Source: an uncultured Anaerolineales bacterium
GTDB taxonomy: Bacteria > Chloroflexota > Anaerolineae > UBA1429
NCBI GenBank assembly: GCA_964407215.1
Contig: CAYOUT010000006.1
Span: forward strand, 87,437-151,436
Length of the DNA: 64,000 bases
Reading direction: 5' to 3'
Positions 17,818-63,537 of the stretch are shown here, piece after piece. The translations under genes and the position numbers were made by a program. Every line of letters begins with the position of its first letter. Positions within the stretch are counted from its first letter, which is position 1. A model generated the notes under the pieces. It saw nothing but the letters and a program-made list of their open reading frames with translations, was not told the origin of the DNA and did no database searches.

Positions 17818-17847
17818 GGGCGGGGGGGCGCGACGCGATGGTTATGT

Positions 17848-18150
17848 GTAGGGACGCAGGGCCGCGCGTGGCGGTGTGTGTAGGGGCGCAGGGCCGCGCG
17901 TGGCGGTGTGTGTAGGGGCGCACAGCTGTGCGCCCCTACATTCCCACATCGTATCCCCACATCGTGCGCTCCTACATTCCCACATCGTATCCCCACATCG
18001 TGCGCCCCTACATTCCCGCATCGTATCCCCGCATCGCATGCGCCTTGTACATTGCAGCGCAGAGACGCGCCGCCGGGGTTGTGTGCGCGGGGCGCAGGGC
18101 CGCGTGTGGCGGTGTGTGTAGGGGCGCACAGCTGTGCGCCCCTACACGGG
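17848..18150. repeat. REP/BIME-like palindrome array, 5' of the RAYT
   Basis: Two ~32-nt direct repeats (GTAGGG[AG]CGCAGGGCCGCGCGTGGCGGTGTGT), then the full palindrome, then three 36-nt tandem units (TTCCCACATCGTATCCCCACATCGTGCGC[TC]CCTACA), then a second palindrome copy. Confidence 0.7.
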
Positions 18151-18204
18151 TGGATTTACATGGTGCGCTCTTACATGGTGGCTACGCAAAGGCGATATCA
18201 GGCA

Positions 18205-18738
18205 ATGCCCTACGATCCGGACCGGCACCACAGACGCACGTTGCGCCTACAACAGCTCTATAGCCAAACGAACACTTTTTTTGTCACCCTGACGACACAT
18301 GAACGCGTTTGTCTTTTCGGCGAGGTGGTCGGCGGGGCGATAGTGCTGTCGGCGTTCGGAAAGATCGTCGAAGAGGAGTGGCTGAAAACGCCCGAGATCC
18401 GCCCCCAGGCCGTTCTCGACGCGTATGTCATCATGCCGAACCATGCGCACCTCCTCGTGAGACTTTCGGTTCACGCGGATGCGACAGGCGCCGTAGCGGT
18501 CGTCGGCCGCGATGACAGGCCCCTGGTGCGCCCAGCGAGATCGCTGGGCTCTCTCATCGCAGGGTTCAAGGCGGCTTGTACCACGCGCATTAACACGATG
18601 CGCGATACAGCCGGAGCGCGGGTGTGGCAGAGGAACTACTATGAGCGTATCGTACGCAACGAGAGAGAGTTGAACGCTCTCCGATGCTATATCCGGGAGA
18701 ACCCATCCAACTGGGCGGCGGATCCTGACAACGTATGA
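18205..18738 (+). CDS. REP-associated tyrosine transposase (RAYT; IS200-like Y1 HUH transposase)
   Basis: MPYDPDRHHRRTLRL…FFVTLTT…IMPNHAHLLV (HuH motif)…WQRNYYERIV (catalytic Tyr region). In-frame alternative ATGs lie at 18160 and 18175. GC content is visibly lower than the neighbouring genes. Confidence 0.8.
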   Translation: MPYDPDRHHRRTLRLQQLYSQTNTFFVTLTTHERVCLFGEVVGGAIVLSAFGKIVEEEWLKTPEIRPQAVLDAYVIMPNHAHLLVRLSVHADATGAVAVVGRDDRPLVRPARSLGSLIAGFKAACTTRINTMRDTAGARVWQRNYYERIVRNERELNALRCYIRENPSNWAADPDNV

Positions 18739-18788
18739 CGGCACGGCGCCGCCGGGGTTGCGCGCGGGGATGCGACGTGATGATATAT

Positions 18789-19130
18789 GTAGGCATATGT
18801 AGGGGCGCGGAGACGCGGCGTGATGGTGTGTGGTGATATGTGTAGGGGCATATGTAGGGGCGCACAGCTGTGCGCCCCTACATTCCCGCATCACGTGCGC
18901 CCACATCACGCGCTCCCATCGCGTGCGCCTTGTATATTGCAGTGTATCAAAGCGCAGGGGCACACCGTGATGGTGCCGGGACATGTGCAGGGGCGCGGAG
19001 ATGCGACGTGATGGTGTGTGGTGATATGTGTGAGCGCACAGCTGTGCGCCCCTACACCCGCATCGCTACATTCCCGCCCCTACATTTTCGTATCGTGCGC
19101 TCCTACACCGCGTGCATTTATATGGCACCC
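18789..19130. repeat. REP/BIME-like palindrome array, 3' of the RAYT
   Basis: GTAGG half-sites, the full palindrome at ~18854-18881, a module (TGCGCCTTGTATATTGCAG…) similar to one in the 5' array, and a degenerate palindrome at ~19034-19055. Confidence 0.65.
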
Positions 19131-29640: not shown

Positions 29641-29658
29641 ACGGGGCGGGCGCGGGGG

Positions 29659-29718
29659 CCCCGCAGCCGCTCTGGCGGCCCCGCAGCCGCTCTGGCGGCC
29701 CCGCAGCCGCTCTGGCGG
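29659..29718. repeat. 3 x 20-nt perfect tandem repeat (CCCCGCAGCCGCTCTGGCGG)
   Basis: Three identical head-to-tail units between the convergent E1-beta (ends 29640) and HTH gene (ends 29724). Confidence 0.85.
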
Positions 29719-29723
29719 CCGCC

Positions 29724-31047: not shown

Positions 31048-31266
31048 ACCCACATGAGCTTGCTTTAAGCGCGCACCGCAGTGTTTGCGGCCGCCCACGG
31101 CCCTTTGGCCCCCCGTAAGCTCTGTGATGCTATCGGGTGTGTTCCGTTGGAGTACGGCGGCAGCACACCGCCTCAGCTCGGGATCCCCGCTCTTCCGCGG
31201 CGGCGAACCATAGACCCGTTACCGGAATGTGCACCGCGCAACAATTCGATCGTGAAGGAGGCTACC

Positions 31267-34200
31267 ATGTCCAAACACCGTAGGGCCGCAGAGTTCACCG
31301 GGCACGGGGCGCGCTGGCTGCGCCTGCTGCTGGCCGTCGCCCTGCTGTTGTCGTTCTCTGCCGCGGGGGCGCCGAGGCCCGTCCAGGCCGATCCGGCGAG
31401 CGATCCGGGCGCGGGCGGCGCGTCGATGAGCCCGCTGGCGGATGAGGTATGCACCACCGTCCATCTGGTGGCCGTGGCCGACACGTATATGAATGGCGCA
31501 CAGAATAGCCAGACCCGGAATTACGGCAACGAGACGACGGTGAGGCAAACTGTACCTCGCAGTCAGGTTGCCTCCGAGGGGGGCCTCTACAAGTGGAACC
31601 TCTCCAGCATCCCCGCCGGCGCCAGAGTGGATTCGGCCAGTTTAACGTTCCGCGTCACCGCCGGGTCTAGCCGGGTGTTCAACCTGTACCGCGTGCGCAA
31701 GAATTGGACCGAGGGCGGGGCGACTTGGCGCACTTATAATGGAACCACCTCTTGGAGCTCCAACGGCGCCGCCGGTACCACAGGCTTCACGCCAGACCGC
31801 GACAGCACGAGCATGTGGACGGTGCAAGCCAGTGCCTTTAACGCGACCGGCGTGCAGGAGTTCACCCTGAACGCAACCGGCCGCGGCGTTCTGGAGGACT
31901 GGATCAACAACTCCAGCACCAACTACGGGGTGACGATTCAGAACTACACGTCGGTTACGGGCACGCAGTCGAGCAATTGGACAGTGCAGTCCAGAACCGG
32001 CTCGGGTGGTGGCCCCGGTGTCCCCTCCACTCCCCCCACGCTGAACGTGACCTACTGCGTTCCGGCGGAGTACGGCGTGACGCTGACGCCCGCCGCCGCT
32101 GCGCAGTCGGGCGACTCGGGCGATACGGTGACCTACACGCTGACGGTGCGCAACACCGGCGACGTCGAGGACACGTTCACCCTGGCCCTTGGCGACAGTG
32201 ATTGGGATGCGACGCTGTCGATATCGCCCCCGAGCGTGACGCTGGCTGCGAACGCGACCGCCGTTGTGCAGGTGAGCGTCGACATCCCGGCGAACGCACT
32301 GGCGGGGGCTGAAGACGAGGTGGCGGTGACGGCCACGTCACAGGGCGACACCACAAAATCGGCCAGCGCCACCCTCACAACGAGCGCAAACACGGTGTAC
32401 GGCGTGACGCTGACGGCCGACACCAATACGCAGACGGACAACATAGGCACGACGGTGGCCTACACCCTGACGGTGACCAACACCGGCAACGACGAGGACA
32501 CGTTCGACCTGGCCCTGGGCGGCGGTACGTGGACGACGACGCTGTCGGCCGCGAGCCTGACGTTGGATGCGGGCGATAGCGACACGGTGACGGTGGAGGT
32601 AGAGATCCCCGACGACGCTTGGGGCGGAACTAGCGACGCGGTGACGGTGACGGCCACGTCACAGAGCGACGGCACAAAGTCGGCCAACGTCACCCTCACG
32701 ACCGTCGTCTCCCAGTACGCCGTGATGCTGACGCCCGACTTTCATACGCTGACGGGCGACCCGGGCGGCGCGGCGGCGGTCTACAATCTGACGGTGACCA
32801 ACAACGGCAACGTCGCGGACACGTTCGAACTGGAGCTCGGCACCAGCGCGTGGGGTGCGACGCTGTCGGACGACGAAATAACGCTGGATGCGGGCGCGAG
32901 CGCCACAGTGCAGGTGAGCGTCGCTGTTCCCGCGGGTGTGGCGGGCGGCGCCACCGACTCTGTGGAAGTGACGGCCAGGTCACAGGGCAGCAGCGGGAGG
33001 GAAACGACCAGTGTCACCCTCACGACGCGCGCCAGGAAGGTGTACGGCGTGACGCTGGAGGCCGTCGAGGGCGTCGTCGAGCTGTCGGACAACCCGGGCG
33101 AGACGGTGACCTATATGCTGACGGTGACCAACACCGGCAACACCGCGGACACTTTCAAGGTCGCTGTCAGCGGGAACGTGTGGACAGTGTCGACGGCCAC
33201 AACGGTGGGGCTGGACGCCGGTGAGAGCCTCTTGCACACGGTGAAGGTGACCATCCCGGCGGGCGCGCTGGCGGGCGCCAGCGACGCCGTGACGGTAACG
33301 GTCACGTCAGACAACGATGATGACGCAACGGACAGCGTCACCCTCACCACGAGCGCCAACACGGTGTACGGCGTGGAGGTGGCGGCCGACAACAACAACC
33401 TGACGGGCGACGCGGGCGATACGATGACCTACACGCTGACGGTGACCAACACCGGCAACGCTGAGGACACGTTCACCCTGGGCTCCGAAGACGATAGGTG
33501 GCCGACGTGGGTGTCGCCCCTGAGCGTGACGTTGGATGTGGGCGCGAGTGCAGAGGTGACGGTGGAGGTAAAGATCCCCGACGACGCGCTGGGCGGCGAC
33601 AAAGACACCGTGACGGTGACGGCCATGTCACCGAGCAGTGTATCCGACAGCGTGGACCTGACCACTCGCGTCAGGACGGCGCGCGAGGTCGAGTTGACGG
33701 CCGCCGCCGCTGCGCAGTCGGGCGACCCGGGCGTGACGGTGGTCTACAATCTGACGGTGACCAACGCCGGCAACATCGTGGACACGTTCGACCTGGACCT
33801 CAGCGTCTCTACATGGACGACGTGGTGGATGATGACGCCCGCCCAAGTGACGGTGGGACCGGGTGCGACCGCCGCGGTGACGGTGAGCGTCACCATCCCG
33901 GCGGACGCGCTGGCGGGCGCCAGTGGCGCTGCGACGGTGACGGCCACGTCGCGGAGCGACGCAACGGTATCGGACAGCATCACCCTCACGACGAGCGCCA
34001 ACGCGGTGTACGGCGTGCAGGTGGAGGCCGCCGACGTCGCTCTCTCGGACTATGCGGGCGAGACCGTGTCCTATGTGGTGACGGTGACCAACCTCGGCAA
34101 CGCTGAGGACACGTTCGACCTGGATCTCAGCGGCGCCACGTGGACGACGGATCAGTCGCGCACGAGCATGGTGTTGGCGGCGGGCGCGAGCGACACGGTG

Positions 34201-34368
34201 ACGGTGGAGGTAGAGATCCCCGGCGACGCTCGGGGCGACGACAGCGATACCGTGACGCTGACGGCCACGTCACAGGGCGACGACAACATCTCCGCCGGCG
34301 TGGAACTGACCACCACGACAGAGTATTTCTGGCTCTATCTCTATATTCCGTCCGTTAGCAGGCGGTAA
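31267..34368 (+). CDS. large secreted surface protein: signal peptide + DNRLRE-like domain + 7 tandem DUF11/CARDB-like repeat domains
   Basis: Start MSKHRRAAEF…LLLAVALLLSFSAAGAPRPVQA (signal peptide) with a GAAGGAGG SD. N-terminal domain (…LSSIPAGARVDSASLTFRV…YRVRKNWTEGGATW…) resembles DNRLRE domains. Then seven ~108-aa repeats, each with a TYTLTVTNTGN..DTF.L…W..TLS…VTL.AG.S..V.V.V.IP..A..G..D.VTVTATSQ core (nt ~32071-34330). The upstream part of the track ORF (from 31081) is not used. Confidence 0.85.
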   Translation: MSKHRRAAEFTGHGARWLRLLLAVALLLSFSAAGAPRPVQADPASDPGAGGASMSPLADEVCTTVHLVAVADTYMNGAQNSQTRNYGNETTVRQTVPRSQVASEGGLYKWNLSSIPAGARVDSASLTFRVTAGSSRVFNLYRVRKNWTEGGATWRTYNGTTSWSSNGAAGTTGFTPDRDSTSMWTVQASAFNATGVQEFTLNATGRGVLEDWINNSSTNYGVTIQNYTSVTGTQSSNWTVQSRTGSGGGPGVPSTPPTLNVTYCVPAEYGVTLTPAAAAQSGDSGDTVTYTLTVRNTGDVEDTFTLALGDSDWDATLSISPPSVTLAANATAVVQVSVDIPANALAGAEDEVAVTATSQGDTTKSASATLTTSANTVYGVTLTADTNTQTDNIGTTVAYTLTVTNTGNDEDTFDLALGGGTWTTTLSAASLTLDAGDSDTVTVEVEIPDDAWGGTSDAVTVTATSQSDGTKSANVTLTTVVSQYAVMLTPDFHTLTGDPGGAAAVYNLTVTNNGNVADTFELELGTSAWGATLSDDEITLDAGASATVQVSVAVPAGVAGGATDSVEVTARSQGSSGRETTSVTLTTRARKVYGVTLEAVEGVVELSDNPGETVTYMLTVTNTGNTADTFKVAVSGNVWTVSTATTVGLDAGESLLHTVKVTIPAGALAGASDAVTVTVTSDNDDDATDSVTLTTSANTVYGVEVAADNNNLTGDAGDTMTYTLTVTNTGNAEDTFTLGSEDDRWPTWVSPLSVTLDVGASAEVTVEVKIPDDALGGDKDTVTVTAMSPSSVSDSVDLTTRVRTAREVELTAAAAAQSGDPGVTVVYNLTVTNAGNIVDTFDLDLSVSTWTTWWMMTPAQVTVGPGATAAVTVSVTIPADALAGASGAATVTATSRSDATVSDSITLTTSANAVYGVQVEAADVALSDYAGETVSYVVTVTNLGNAEDTFDLDLSGATWTTDQSRTSMVLAAGASDTVTVEVEIPGDARGDDSDTVTLTATSQGDDNISAGVELTTTTEYFWLYLYIPSVSRR

Positions 34369-48896: not shown

Positions 48897-50369
48897 CTAG
48901 GGCGCGCCCTCGGGTGTGCCGAGGGGTGCCTGTAGGCTGATGCGTGTGCCGAGGCCGGGCGCGGAGGCGATGGCCATCCGCCCGCCCACCATCTCCAGCC
49001 GCTCGCGAATGCTGAGGAGGCCGTAGCCGCTAGAGGGCGACACGTCGCTCAGGCCGTCGGTGGGGGCGAACCCCCGGCCGTCGTCGGCCACCTCGATCTC
49101 CAGCCATCCGCTGGCGGGGCGCCGCAACAGTACGCGGGCATGTTGGGTGTCGGCGTGTTTGACGACGTTGAACAACAGCTCGCGCACCGCCTGAAAGAGC
49201 AGCACGCGCACCCCCTCCGCCGCGGGCGGCGCCTCGTCATCCGCCTGCAGCTCGACGGTGAGCCCGTGGTTATCGTGCATCCAGCTGGCCAGCCAGCGCA
49301 GCGCGGGCCCCAGGCCCAGGTCGTAGAGTACGGGCGGACTGATATCCATAGAGAGCGAGCGGCAGGCTTGGATAGACTGATCCAGCAGCTCGTCGGCGAG
49401 GCGCAGCGTCTCCTGCATCGTGCTGGCTTGCGCCTGCCTGGCCGCCGCCGCCAGCCGCAGCCTGATGGCCGCCAACAGCTGCTGCAGGTCGTCGTGGAGC
49501 ATCTGCGCCAGCCGACGGCGCTCGCGCTGCTCGGCCACCGAGAGCTCGAACACCAGGCCGCGCAGCTGCTCGGTGCGCCGCTCCAGCTCTCGGTGGGTGC
49601 GCTGGAGCGCCTCCTCCGCGCGTTTGCGCTGGGTAACGTCGCGTGCGGCGGCGAAAACGCCCTGCAGCTCGCCGGCCTCGTTGCGGTAGACGCTGGCGTT
49701 ATAGAGCACGTCTATGGTGCGCCCCGAGGTGTGGCGGATCGTCAGCGGGTAGTCTCGCACCTCGCCCTCGGAGAGGACGCGCCGATAGCCCTCGCGCGCC
49801 CTCTCCGGCTCGGTAAAGCTGGCGCCGAAATCGCTGCCGATGAGCTGCTCGCGGGGCAGGCCGGTGGCATCCTCGGTGGCGCGGTTGACGTCGGTGATGA
49901 CGCCGGCGGGGCTGATGGCCACCAACGGGTCGGGGCTGGCCTCGAGCAGGCTGCGGGCGTAGCGCGAGGCGCGCGCCATCTCCACCTCGTGGCGTTTGCG
50001 TTCGATGGCGTAGCGCAGCGTACGCACAAGCAGCGTGCCGTGCGCCTCCCCTTTGAGGAGGTAATCTTGGGCCCCGCTCTCCATGGCGCGCAGCGCGATG
50101 GCCTCGTCGTGCAGGCCGCTCAACAGCACCACGGGCAGGTCGGGTGCGTGGGCGTGCACGCGCAGGAACGTCTCCAGCCCCTGGCTGTCGGGCAGGCCCA
50201 GGTCGAGCAGCATCACCGCCGGCTCGATCTCGGCCAGGCGCTGTAGGCCATCCTGCAGGGTGGTGGCCAGCTCCAGCTGAAACGGCGCGCCCGCATCGCG
50301 GAGCAGCTCGTGCGTCAGCCGCGAGTCGCCCGGGTTGTCCTCAACGAGAAGAACGATCTCCTTGATCAT
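48897..50369 (-). CDS. hybrid sensor kinase: N-terminal REC domain + PAS + HisKA_3 (NarL-type H-box) + HATPase_c
   Basis: [15 protein letters not shown]…LLDLGLPD… (receiver with conserved Asp), PAS region, H-box …[13 protein letters not shown]… (HisKA_3), HATPase (…EVADDGRGF…[12 protein letters not shown]…). GGGAGGGG SD. Confidence 0.85.
49645..49963. repeat. ~319-bp segment, apparently nucleotide-identical to 51579..51897 (PAS-domain coding region shared between two kinase genes)
   Basis: Encodes …[108 protein letters not shown]… in both genes. Flanks diverge immediately outside. Confidence 0.8.
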
Positions 50370-50829
50370 CGGGACCCCTCCCGTTGGGTGGCAAAACCAC
50401 GACCGTGAACCAAAACTCTTGGATAGACTTGACGACGCTCAGGAACTCTTCGAGGCCCACCGGCTTGGTGATGTAGCAGTTGGCGTGCAAACCGTAGCTT
50501 CGCAGGACGTCCTCCTCGTCGCGCGACGTCGTCAGAATGACCACGGGGATGCGTCGCAGGTCGGGGTCCTCTTTGATCTCCGCCAAGACCTCGCGCCCGT
50601 CCTTGCGGGGCAGGTTCAGGTCTAACAGGACGAGATCGGGGCGCACGGTGTTGGTGTAATGGCCTTGGCGGCGCAGATACGCCAGCGCCTCCACGCCGTC
50701 GCCCACGATGTTGAGGCGATTGAGCACGCGCCCCTCTTTGAGCGCCTCCTGCGTGAGGCGCACGTCGCCCGCGTTGTCCTCTACCAACAGGATCTCGATG
50801 GGGCGGCCTACCGATAGGTTACCGGCCAT
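50341..50829 (-). CDS. single-domain response regulator (CheY-like receiver)
   Basis: …[13 protein letters not shown]…[13 protein letters not shown]…PVVILTTS…. No output domain. Overlaps both flanking kinase genes (29 nt and 11 nt). Confidence 0.85.
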
Positions 50830-52834
50830 GATGTGTACGTTTCCTTTCGGGGATGGAAAAGTAGAATGTGGATCCGCTGCCGGGTGTGGATTCGACCCAA
50901 ATGCGTCCTCCGTGGCGCTCTACGATCCGCTTGCACACGGGCAAGCCGATGCCGCTGCCCGCGTAGCGATCGCGGCTGTGCAGCCGCTGAAAGAATAAAA
51001 AGATGCGATCGCTGTATTCGGGCGAGATGCCGATGCCGTTGTCTTGGACGGCGAACACCCACTCGCCGCGCTTGCGCTGCGCCGAGATCGCAACGCGCGG
51101 GGGGGCGTCGCCGCGGAATTTGATGGCGTTACTCACCAGGTTCTGCAGCAGCTGTTCCATCTGCGTGGCATCGGCCGAGATGGCGGGCAGTGGGCGGTGA
51201 GTGACGATGGCGTCGTGCTCGTGGATGGCCAGCTGCAGGTTTGCGAGCACCTGCGCCAGTATACGGTTCATATCCACCGGTTCAAAGTCGGCGCCCCGGG
51301 TGTTGACGCGCGAGTACACCAGCAGGTCGTTGATCATGTGCTGCATGCGGTTGGCGCCATCCACGGCAAAGCCGATGAACTCGTTGGCCGCCTCGTCCAG
51401 CTGGTCTGCATAGCGCTGCTGCAGCAGCTGGGTAAAGCTCGCCACCATGCGCAGGGGTTCCTGCAGGTCGTGCGAGGCCACGTAGGCGAACTGCTGCAGG
51501 TCGGCGTTGGAGCGCTCCAGCTCGGCGGCCTGGCGTTGCAGCGCCTCCTCGGCGCGCTTGCGCGCGGTGATGTCTCGCGCGGCGGCGAAAACGCCCTGCA
51601 GCTCGCCGGCCTCGTTGCGGTAGACGCTGGCGTTATAGAGCACGTCTATGGTGCGCCCCGAGGTGTGGCGGATCGTCAGCGGGTAGTCTCGCACCTCGCC
51701 CTCGGAGAGGACGCGCCGATAGCCCTCGCGCGCCCTCTCCGGCTCGGTAAAGCTGGCGCCGAAATCGCTGCCGATGAGCTGCTCGCGGGGCAGGCCGGTG
51801 GCATCCTCGGTGGCGCGGTTGACGTCGGTGATGACGCCGGCGGGGCTGATGGCCACCAACGGGTCGGGGCTGGCCTCGAGCAGGCTGCGGGCGTAGCTCG
51901 AGGCGGCGCGCAACTCGGCGGTGCGCTCGCGCACGCGCTCGTCCAGCTCGTCGTTGGCCCGGCGGAGCGCCTCCTCGGCGTGCCTGCGCTCGGTGATGTC
52001 TATCCCCATGCCGATGAGGTACGGGGCACCGTCGATCTCGATCCGCAACCCGCTGAAATCGTAGGGGATTTTGCGGCCGTCTTTGGTGATGATCTCCGCC
52101 TCGATGCGAGCCTCGCCCTGTGAGAACACTTGGCGGATCCGCTCCTCCAGCAGGCGCCGGTCCTCACCCTCGAAATAATCCAGCGGGCTCCTCCGGACCA
52201 CCTCTTCGGAGGTGTACCCGGTGACGCGCTCCCAGTTCCTGTTCCAGCGGATAAAGCGCCCCTGCTCGTTGTAGAGGTAAAAGATGCCCGGCAGGCTCTC
52301 CAGCGTTCGCTCGGAGAGGGTGGCCAGCTGGTGCAACTCGGCGGTGCGCTCGGCCACGCGGCGCTCCAGCGACTCGTTAGCCTCTTTGAGGGCGCTCTCG
52401 GCGCGCACGCGCTCGGTGATATCCAGGCCCACCTCGAGTATCTGTTGCGCCCCATTCGCCCCCTGAAAGGGGTAATCGTAGATGTCGTAGATGCGGCGGT
52501 CGGGGCCCGTCCACACCCAGTGGTGGGGGGCGCCGGTTTGCAGGGAGTGGTAGGTCTCGCAATCCTCGCAGGGGGCGCCGCGCTCGAACAGATATTCGTA
52601 ACAGGGGCGGCCGTCGGCCTCACCGAAGCGCTCTGTGAAGAAGCGGTTGGTAAAGGTGACGCGGTAATCCGCGGATAGCAGGATAATGTACACCGGCAGT
52701 GTGTCGAGCAGGTGGTAGAGCTGCTCGCGCCCCAGGATCGCGCCGTGCATCGGCGCTGTCTCGAGCTCGGCCACGCGGCGTCGCAGGGCGGTCAGCTCCT
52801 CGCGCAACCGCGCTATCTCTGCGTCACGATCCAT
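50819..52834 (-). CDS. multi-PAS sensor histidine kinase (HisKA + HATPase_c), cytoplasmic
   Basis: N-terminal coiled coil, at least three PAS/PAC units, H-box …[14 protein letters not shown]…, HATPase …[11 protein letters not shown]…[13 protein letters not shown]…. AGGAGG SD. Confidence 0.85.
51579..51897. repeat. second copy of the ~319-bp PAS-coding segment (see 49645..49963)
   Basis: Apparently identical nucleotide sequence in the same orientation. Confidence 0.8.
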
Positions 52835-63309: not shown

Positions 63310-63407
63310 CCGCCGGGCTGGCCAGGGGGTAAAGCCCCGGCACAGGTTCCTGGGCGTGCCAAGGGCACCCGGCAGACCCAGCCCGGTACTGCAGTGTCGG
63401 GCGCGCC
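63310..63407. repeat. ~100-nt structured intergenic repeat, copy 1
   Basis: CGCCGGGCTGGCCAGGGGGTAAAGCCCCGGCACAGGTTCCTGGGCGTGCCAAGGGCACCCGGCAGACCCAGCCCGGTACTGCAGTGTCGGGCGCGCC. Contains two hairpins. Confidence 0.7.
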
Positions 63408-63439
63408 CCCGCGCACGCACCCCATTCGGTGGCGCGCGG

Positions 63440-63537
63440 CGCCGGGCTGGCCAGGGGTTGAAACCCCTGGCACAGGTTCCTGGGCGTGCTGAGAGCACTC
63501 GGCAAACCCAGCCCGGTACTGCAGTGCCGGACGCGCC
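63440..63537. repeat. ~100-nt structured intergenic repeat, copy 2 (about 85-90% identical)
   Basis: Same order of motifs. Hairpin 2 differs by a compensatory pair (GUGCC-AAG-GGCAC versus GUGCU-GAG-AGCAC). Hairpin 1 is perfect in copy 2 (GCCAGGGG-uugaaa-CCCCUGGC). Ends at the stop codon of the permease gene. Confidence 0.7.

Follow-up and report, generated by a model that had tools for sequence, protein, structure and literature searches.

An identical 319-nt PAS-coding block in two neighbouring histidine kinase genes as a probable footprint of ectopic gene conversion

In bacterial paralogues, ectopic gene conversion and concerted evolution are exemplified by the tufA/tufB genes and the rRNA operons. 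Concerted evolution has been described for the rRNA operons (PMC6002687), and gene conversion for the repeat genes of M. tuberculosis (PMC12046097) and for ntrX of Ehrlichia (PMC9937504). Here we analysed a 64-kb stretch of DNA (the window, to which all positions refer) in which two neighbouring sensor kinase genes, designated A and B, share a PAS-coding block. As in known gene conversion, the identity of the two copies was complete including the synonymous sites and lay inside homology that was older and more diverged, the paralogues of one genome were closer to each other than to their orthologues, and the tracts were mosaic, lineage-specific, non-reciprocal and limited by homology. In contrast to the known cases, the tract was confined to one domain of approximately 107 residues, and the two multi-domain genes were otherwise unalignable in DNA and encoded transmitters of different classes, HisKA and HisKA_3. 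Gene conversion as a mechanism is already well established, and the locus is fairly ordinary. On the protein side, the LOV-FixL fusion YF1 is an engineered chimeric histidine kinase made by a PAS swap. As in YF1, a PAS sensor appears to have been swapped at the signalling-helix junction while the helix specific to each kinase was kept together with the phospho-acceptor domain, but here the exchange would have arisen in nature, repeatedly, and with both genes resident in the genome.

The kinase genes form one operon on the minus strand with a small gene, R, between them, in the order B (first)-R-A (last). Kinase B (50819..52834, 671 aa), defined by its open reading frame and Pfam, consisted of three PAS domains, namely PAS1 with a Cys motif (52385-52723), PAS2 (51965-52306) and PAS3 adjoining the kinase core (51554-51889), followed by HisKA (51302-51499) and HATPase_c (50843-51172), and was 100% identical to the database protein P0121. 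Gene R (50341..50829, 162 aa), which shares 11 nt with the end of B and 29 nt with the start of A, encoded a stand-alone receiver domain of the Rcp1-like kind; its homologues with 70-81% identity are named Rcp1 or CheY-like in JGI. Kinase A (48897..50369, 490 aa), defined in the same way, had the architecture REC (50028-50354), PAS (49620-49955), HisKA_3 (49329-49523) and HATPase_c (48921-49208). The assignment of the two kinase cores to different families in the initial annotation was thus borne out by Pfam. The HisKA_3 domain of A scored 37.4 bits (cut-off 24) at residues 283-347, the His box was LHDDLQQ with His292, and HATPase_c followed at 51.2 bits, placing A in the HisKA_3 class of the NarX/DesK/LiaS type. 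No named equivalog scored above its cut-off in NCBIfam, neither a lost C-terminal receiver of A nor a NarL-type partner was found beside the operon, look-ups of the exact products of B, A and the upstream gene returned nothing on record, and Rfam gave no match over the whole 64-kb window. The Cph1/Rcp1 phytochrome system was considered as a counterpart and rejected, as B had no GAF/PHY module and carried only PAS, HisKA and HATPase_c; R alone was Rcp1-like.

Base-by-base alignment confirmed the reported identity of the shared DNA: 49645..49963 in A and 51579..51897 in B matched at all 319 of 319 positions, with an offset of 1934. On the minus strand, the two copies are read in an identical codon phase and encode residues 136-242 of A and residues 313-419 of B, the latter forming the core of PAS3. 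Beyond the block, one mismatch (49964/51898) was followed by seven identical bases, giving 327 nt with a single mismatch. On the high-coordinate side, toward the PAS N-terminus, identity then dropped to 22% across 60 nt. Toward lower coordinates it was 71% across 62 nt, corresponding to the linker helices that follow the PAS domains on the minus strand (49583..49644 in A and 51517..51578 in B), and then 48%. The initial annotation had described divergence immediately outside the block, which was correct for the N-terminal side only; on the C-terminal side approximately 60 nt at 71% remained in the linker helix, which marks the C-terminal edge of the tract. This 71% similarity is an older, unconverted homology. 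The block was the sole long near-exact repeat within the 64-kb window, and its identity covered every third codon position, compared with 48-65% third-position identity in unconverted comparisons. When the 82% paralogue identity of one relative was taken as the baseline, the probability of 319 consecutive matches was approximately 1e-28. Purifying selection was rejected as the cause of the similarity, which reached all synonymous sites; the partly homogenised pair of copies in the relative L086 differed at 9 of 107 residues.

The PAS of the block was scored with Pfam (PF00989/PF08448) and with the NCBIfam sensory box TIGR00229. In A, residues 139-250 gave 56.7 bits for PAS (cut-off 22.6) and 56.2 bits for PAS_4 (cut-off 23.1); the score for TIGR00229 was 71.6 bits. 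At the protein level, the PAS units of multi-PAS proteins (PAS S-box, TIGR00229), numbering in the hundreds and spread over many phyla, were 60-70% identical to it, and this subfamily is unusually conserved. DNA repeats of PAS-unit size with 81-91% identity were frequent in related loci, mostly in tandem within one gene and none of them exact; unlike in such multi-PAS arrays, the exchange here would be between two genes, and the identity was complete. A search of solved structures with the PAS returned only weak matches to the PAS domains of FixL and BvgS, and thus gave no clue to a ligand. The distance from the PAS to the catalytic His was 48 residues in A and 34 in B, a difference of 14 that equals two heptads, and the PAS-His phase modulo 7 was equal in five of the six genes examined.

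Contigs of near-identical strains (L082-L085) allowed the two copies to be compared over a short evolutionary distance. Outside the blocks, L082 was about 99.5-99.6% identical to the window; inside them, it differed at 25 sites in the B copy (between 51593 and 51843) and at four in the A copy. The A copy of the window differed at only 4-5 sites from the L082 and L085 contigs. In the central patch of the B copy (51671..51759, minus strand), L082 and L083 differed from the window at 20 of 89 positions, and A and B of L082 formed a mosaic with identities of 98.5% in the N part, 78.5% in the centre and 95.5% in the C part. The L082 patch encoded ADYF.EPD, close to SDYFTEPDK of other lineages, whereas the window had GASFTEPER, the A-specific form. 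At the concerted sites 49869/51803 and 49846/51780, A equalled B in each strain while the strains differed from each other. The A-type G of the window B copy at 51593, only 14 nt from the shared region's edge, contrasted with T in L082 and L083. The window strain was distinct from L082, L084 and L085, with differences shared by these contigs at 50941, 50924, 50686, 50623 and 50001. L082, assembled with MEGAHIT, spanned both copies with the same flanks and the diverged centre in B, and in all three independent datasets with this species (ERR1880914, ERR1880915 and MTKW01) the B copy was of the unconverted or mosaic type. In L083, the N-terminal flank of A led through the block into the C-terminal flank of B, a junction that a duplication or circle would give. 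Only the window carried the fully identical haplotype, whose diagnostic pattern, a B-specific flank together with the A-type central patch, was unmatched in JGI metagenomes. The central patch is where either a fresh conversion took place in the window lineage or the assembler flattened the sequence. The partial proteins of the strain contigs were absent from the collection used for the cluster look-up.

The operon and its domain order recurred in two diverged relatives (L081 and L086/L087), which carried a PAS at each of the two positions; in L081 and L086 the PAS of both genes lay at the same position, and its spacing to the catalytic histidine was the same. The genes A2 (L081) and A3 (L086) were the orthologues of A. 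This comparison of orthologous loci showed that the common ancestor already had a PAS at both positions. The A-vs-B identity of the block was 99.4% in the window (across a 321-nt codon-aligned block), 91.6% in the L082 strain, 92.8% in L086 (90% at third codon positions) and 81.6% in L081, compared with 74-83% between orthologous blocks across lineages (48-65% at third codon positions). In a neighbour-joining tree and an identity matrix, covering three lineages only, the window and L082 copies clustered together and L086_A grouped with L086_B, while the signal of L081 was weaker. L081 was also a mosaic, with an A-vs-B identity of 90.3% in the centre and 76-80% in the flanks. L086 and L087 had no differences over approximately 3.8 kb including the A block, yet 13 inside the B block, where converted sites were interleaved with unconverted ones in a pattern that a single long tract does not account for. 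Homogenisation had occurred in at least three lineages, with tracts that differed by lineage. As the copies within a genome were more alike than the orthologues across lineages, the paralogy is an old one with repeated homogenisation.

Wider searches added context to these loci. A scan of the genome collection with B gave best matches of just 48-60% identity and no orthologous locus. The protein searches with A and B were dominated by multi-PAS proteins that scored via summed PAS repeats, the only useful matches being P0090 and P0123 (L081). A metagenome scan with an alignment of the A orthologues, with receiver-domain motifs selected, detected distant relatives only (26-56% identity) and no further orthologous operons. 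The gene order of kinase, receiver and hybrid kinase was found in L081 and L086 and also in L172, L174 and L175. The shared PAS block was absent from the latter three operons, which were reached via R homologues, indicating that sensor sharing is not general to this operon type.

We consider it likely that the block was left by ectopic gene conversion involving two paralogous PAS segments, directed from A to B in the window lineage. Such conversion would be a homology-dependent, non-reciprocal recombination between direct repeats 1.9 kb apart in one operon, presumably dependent on RecA-type recombination. The tract ends where homology runs out, the N-cap forming one limit and the signalling helix specific to each kinase the other. 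Since A was near-constant between the close strains and B differed at 25 sites, the copy in B was most likely overwritten by that in A, with the A copy as the probable donor and the B copy as the probable recipient. The initial annotation had proposed a recent conversion or duplication. As both kinases carried the PAS in the common ancestor, conversion was retained, and a fresh duplication was discarded by the presence of both PAS domains at the same positions in L081 and L086/L087.

A chimera or misjoin, raised at the outset, was excluded because the B-R-A gene order and all four flanks agreed with L081, L086 and L082. Signs of misjoining or repeat collapse were also absent, with both open reading frames intact and in phase and no copy lost. 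The assembler may instead have homogenised the copies, in which case the true genome would be L082-like, and its B centre, approximately 22% diverged, would have been merged so that the A type was written at both places. A bulge-collapsing, pair-aware assembler could have done so, as the near-identical shared flanks (approximately 140 nt in the N part and 90 nt in the C part) around a diverged patch of approximately 90 nt could anchor an equal-length bulge at typical k-mer sizes. In agreement with this, the other assemblies of the species either had the diverged B patch (L082 and L083) or broke within the shared parts (L084 and L085), and neither the assembly comparison nor the JGI metagenomes contained the window-type haplotype elsewhere. 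However, the window strain differs from L082, L084 and L085, and its B copy need not be L082-like. In addition, the A-type base at 51593 in the window B copy cannot be explained by bulge collapse, as no shared k-mer of at least 21 exists downstream, and MEGAHIT did separate the two copies in L082. We thus regard homogenisation by the assembler as a realistic but rather unlikely source of the complete identity. Even if it were true, the near-identity over more than 220 nt remains and is recent conversion.

Conversion with the opposite history, in which the full identity of A and B is the older state and the B centre of L082 was replaced later, either by allelic recombination with a diverged relative or by conversion from a third PAS paralogue, was judged quite improbable. 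The strain comparison alone indicates that B changed in one of two strains and not in which one, the 13 interleaved differences between the B blocks of L086 and L087 resemble an imported allele, and donors could exist given that PAS-unit repeats with 81-91% identity are common in related loci. Nevertheless, a third copy of this PAS subfamily was not present within the 64-kb window, and the L082 B patch bore family-consensus residues. Among all the DNA compared, it matched the A type best (80%) and orthologous B copies next (74-76%), which is what an old resident B sequence should show. That a PAS cassette was recently duplicated or inserted de novo into one kinase, with no earlier paralogy, would fit the sharpness of the N-terminal edge and the domain size of the block; it is extremely improbable, as both genes in the operons of L081 and L086 have a PAS of the same subfamily at exactly the same position and with the same spacing to the catalytic His, and the adjoining linker retains 71% older homology.

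Under A-to-B conversion, the PAS directly before the phospho-accepting helix would be the same protein module in both kinases. The identical module suggests that one and the same cue gates both transmitters. The N-terminal receiver of A probably receives phosphate from B, which would create a two-level relay reading one signal twice. That selection has kept the identity, because the operon needs the same transmitter-proximal PAS in both kinases, and that it is not a neutral by-product of proximity, appears unlikely to us. Under such selection, one ligand may gate both levels of a relay from B through R and the A receiver to A, or alternatively the kinases may associate via PAS dimer surfaces that are identical. 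The homogenisation of at least three lineages with tracts always ending at the signalling helix would then mark a design of one shared sensor and two transmitters, and the pair would be a natural demonstration of one PAS driving a HisKA and a HisKA_3 core with an equal heptad register.

At this locus, natural bacterial signalling proteins cleanly exemplify concerted evolution at the level of a domain: a single operon keeps one sensor module alike in two kinases whose transmitter classes differ, and has done so repeatedly in several lineages. The PAS/signalling-helix junction is a natural swap point, and the kinase pair lets the same sensor be compared on two outputs. Repeats of this kind are among the least reliable places in short-read metagenome assemblies, and strain-resolved or long-read assembly could usefully be tried on this locus. 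The perfect direct repeat of 319 nt also lends itself to deletion or duplication of the intervening 1.9 kb, and a deletion between the repeats would join the sensors of B to the kinase core of A.

Base-by-base alignment of the two sensor kinase genes, REC-PAS-HisKA_3 (kinase A) and PAS×3-HisKA (kinase B), detected 319 identical positions out of 319 between 49645-49963 and 51579-51897 (offset 1934 nt), bearing out the identical PAS-coding DNA claimed in the initial annotation. The copies, both on the minus strand, shared their codon phase and corresponded to residues 136-242 of A (490 aa) and 313-419 of B (671 aa). At the high-coordinate edge, a single mismatch (49964/51898) was followed by seven identical bases, beyond which the identity was 22% across 60 nt; the low-coordinate flank showed 71% identity across 62 nt and then 48%. 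Assuming a paralogue identity of 82% as in a relative, the chance of 319 matches in a row was about 1e-28. Neither another long near-exact repeat nor a third copy of this PAS type was found in the 64-kb window.

The genes of A (48897..50369, minus strand; Pfam REC, PAS, HisKA_3 and HATPase_c) and B (50819..52834, minus strand; three PAS, HisKA and HATPase_c) were separated by that of a stand-alone receiver, R (50341..50829, minus strand, 162 aa; Pfam). The overlaps of 11 nt and 29 nt between the three genes indicated that B-R-A formed one minus-strand operon. In A and B alike, the block encoded the PAS that leads directly into the signalling helix and phospho-accepting histidine. From the PAS end (FAAARD), the catalytic histidine was 48 residues away in A and 34 residues away in B (49329-49644 and 51302-51578), a difference of two heptads that was also seen at the diverged locus L086; in A of another relative, L081, the spacing was 98 residues. 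R belonged to a very conserved group bearing the JGI names Rcp1 or CheY-like; the operon was, however, not a Cph1 system, as the phytochrome module was absent from B. No named NCBIfam equivalog fitted A, B or R, and no NarL-type partner was found near the operon, whose flanks were not related to signalling (upstream, an Ogt-like DNA-binding protein; downstream, an RsgA-like GTPase, a nitroreductase and others). Matches of the block PAS among solved structures were weak throughout (FixL and BvgS, for example). The subfamily of this PAS was unusually conserved, sharing 60-70% protein identity with multi-PAS protein units across many phyla. The first PAS of B contained a cysteine motif, C-x10-C-x2-C (52547-52603, residues 78-96), which was kept in L081, L086 and distant relatives (Planctomycetota, Chloroflexota and methanogenic archaea) and could serve to sense metal or redox state.

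The same operon was present on L081 (GCA_040960625.1) and on L086 and L087 from two JGI metagenomes, at an overall DNA identity to the window of 71-73%. A PAS of the same subfamily occupied the same position in A and B of these loci, indicating that both genes already had it in the common ancestor, which excluded a fresh duplication or insertion. Of the recent domain-level conversion or duplication proposed in the initial annotation, only conversion was thus retained. Identities were computed across the codon-aligned 321-nt block. A and B shared 99.4% of nucleotides and 99% of third codon positions in the window, 92.8% and 90% in L086, 91.6% and 89% in the close strain L082, and 81.6% and 61% in L081, when orthologues across lineages shared 74-83% and 48-65%. 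Residues common to A and B were specific to each lineage, namely DPLVTISP(Q/R)GV in L081 and DPMVTISPQGK in L086, and A and B of the window likewise had their own common 11-residue form at this stretch. The A-B identities of the N-terminal, central and C-terminal parts of the block were 98.5%, 78.5% and 95.5% in L082, and 80.1%, 90.3% and 76.4% in L081; repeated and independent conversion tracts would be expected to leave such differing homogenised parts. Selection on the protein would not be expected to do so, as the partly homogenised L086 pair still differed at 9 of 107 residues. Outside the block, A of L081 (2970-5072) and of L086 (3524-5428) had an extra C-terminal receiver missing from A of the window, downstream of which no remnant of it was found, and B of L081 (142-2523) had at its N-terminus one more PAS of this subfamily, with 77% nucleotide identity to the last PAS.

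An exact look-up of the R protein retrieved four short same-species contigs, originating from Danish anaerobic digester metagenomes (PMC5481317, PMC5480151). L082, a MEGAHIT contig across both copies, was colinear with 52219..49611 without gaps and showed 38 mismatches, of which 25 fell in the B block (20 of them within its central patch, 51671-51759), four in the A block and nine in the remaining ~1970 nt. The four A-block variants were also present in L085 and the between-block variants in L084, indicating that the window represented a distinct strain, ~0.4-0.5% diverged. As A was nearly constant and B changed between the strains, the simplest reading of these sequences is that A likely overwrote B in the window lineage. 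Comparison with the relatives, suggested in the initial annotation for finding the ancestral copy, agreed with this direction: the B patch encoded ADYF.EPD in L082, near SDYFTEPDK of other lineages, and GASFTEPER, the A-specific form, in the window. At 49869/51803 and 49846/51780, A equalled B inside each strain, yet the strains differed. The 99.5% identical strains L086 and L087 showed 13 differences in the B block (L086 2000-2303, offset 1920) and none across the adjoining ~3.8 kb, A block included. L086 B had the A base at 12 of the 13 sites, which were interleaved with 23 still-different sites and did not fit a single long tract. This second lineage behaved like the window and L082, with A constant or nearly so and B varying.

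The initial annotation had also considered a collapse or chimera artefact. A misjoin or copy loss was excluded, as both ORFs were intact and the four flanks and the gene order matched L081, L086 and L082. What survived of this alternative is that the assembler flattened a true L082-like B centre, which would form a bulge of equal length flanked by ~140 nt and ~90 nt of shared sequence, a case that we regard as rather unlikely. Some pair-aware assemblers collapse equal-length bulges regardless of sequence, the fully identical haplotype was seen in the window only, and a diagnostic pattern search for it in JGI metagenomes gave no match. However, the window is a different strain from L082, and at position 51593, only 14 nt away from where the shared region ends, L082 and L083 had T but B of the window had the A-type G. 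Bulge collapse cannot give this state, because no k-mer of at least 21 was common downstream of 51593. Recent conversion stands even if the flattening were true, as the independent MEGAHIT contig L082 showed near-identity over >220 nt.

Another same-species contig, L083 (ENA ERZ925726, 1869 nt), corresponded to window 50882..49579 followed by 51911..50948, reading from R through the N-terminal portion of A and the PAS block into the C-terminal kinase core of B. Its length was near one repeat period (1934 nt), and in the N part of the block it showed a third haplotype. Recombination between the two repeats, giving a tandem duplication or excised circle, would leave such a junction, which may also be no more than an assembler loop through ~137 nt of shared sequence.

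The locus showed old paralogy, homogenised synonymous sites, and lineage-specific tracts bounded by the limits of homology. Conversion from A to B would proceed by RecA-type recombination, with the two direct repeats, 1.9 kb apart, pairing either on a single chromosome or across sister chromosomes. The tract ends would be fixed at the PAS start and the kinase-specific signalling helix by a lack of homology beyond these points or by the harm that longer tracts would do to coupling to two different phospho-acceptor domains. The same PAS input would gate both transmitters, and B may phosphorylate the N-terminal receiver of A, so that one signal would be read at two levels.

Bacterial paralogues are well known to undergo gene conversion, among them rRNA operons (PMC6002687), the repeat genes of M. 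tuberculosis (PMC12046097) and ntrX of Ehrlichia (PMC9937504). In the related loci fetched, PAS-unit-sized DNA repeats were common at 81-91% identity, suggesting that the block PAS subfamily is generally dynamic, with common module duplication or homogenisation. Such repeats were observed in many multi-PAS kinase loci of unrelated organisms (L003, L018, L026, L028, L052, L058, L065, L113, L154 and others), mostly as adjacent units inside one gene. Particular to the window locus are the complete identity, the exchange across two transmitter classes and the recurrence in several lineages. No shared block was found in L172, L174 and L175, operons of the same gene order retrieved through R homologues.

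Other repeats were observed elsewhere in the window. A 1095-aa ORF (31081-34368, plus strand), probably encoding a cell-surface protein, contained at least six Ig-like domains in tandem (FixG_C / NEW3 / VWA7-Ig matches), which showed in the DNA as repeats 60-78% identical with a period of 315-327 nt. In 17845-19056, short tandem repeats with periods of 32 nt and 36 nt (94-97% matches) clustered together with several copies of the palindromic unit GGGGCGCACAGCTGTGCGCCCC. A perfect 20-nt tandem repeat of 3.2 copies was located at 29657-29720, and two 77-nt direct repeats, 88% identical and 130 nt apart, lay near the window end (63331-63537).
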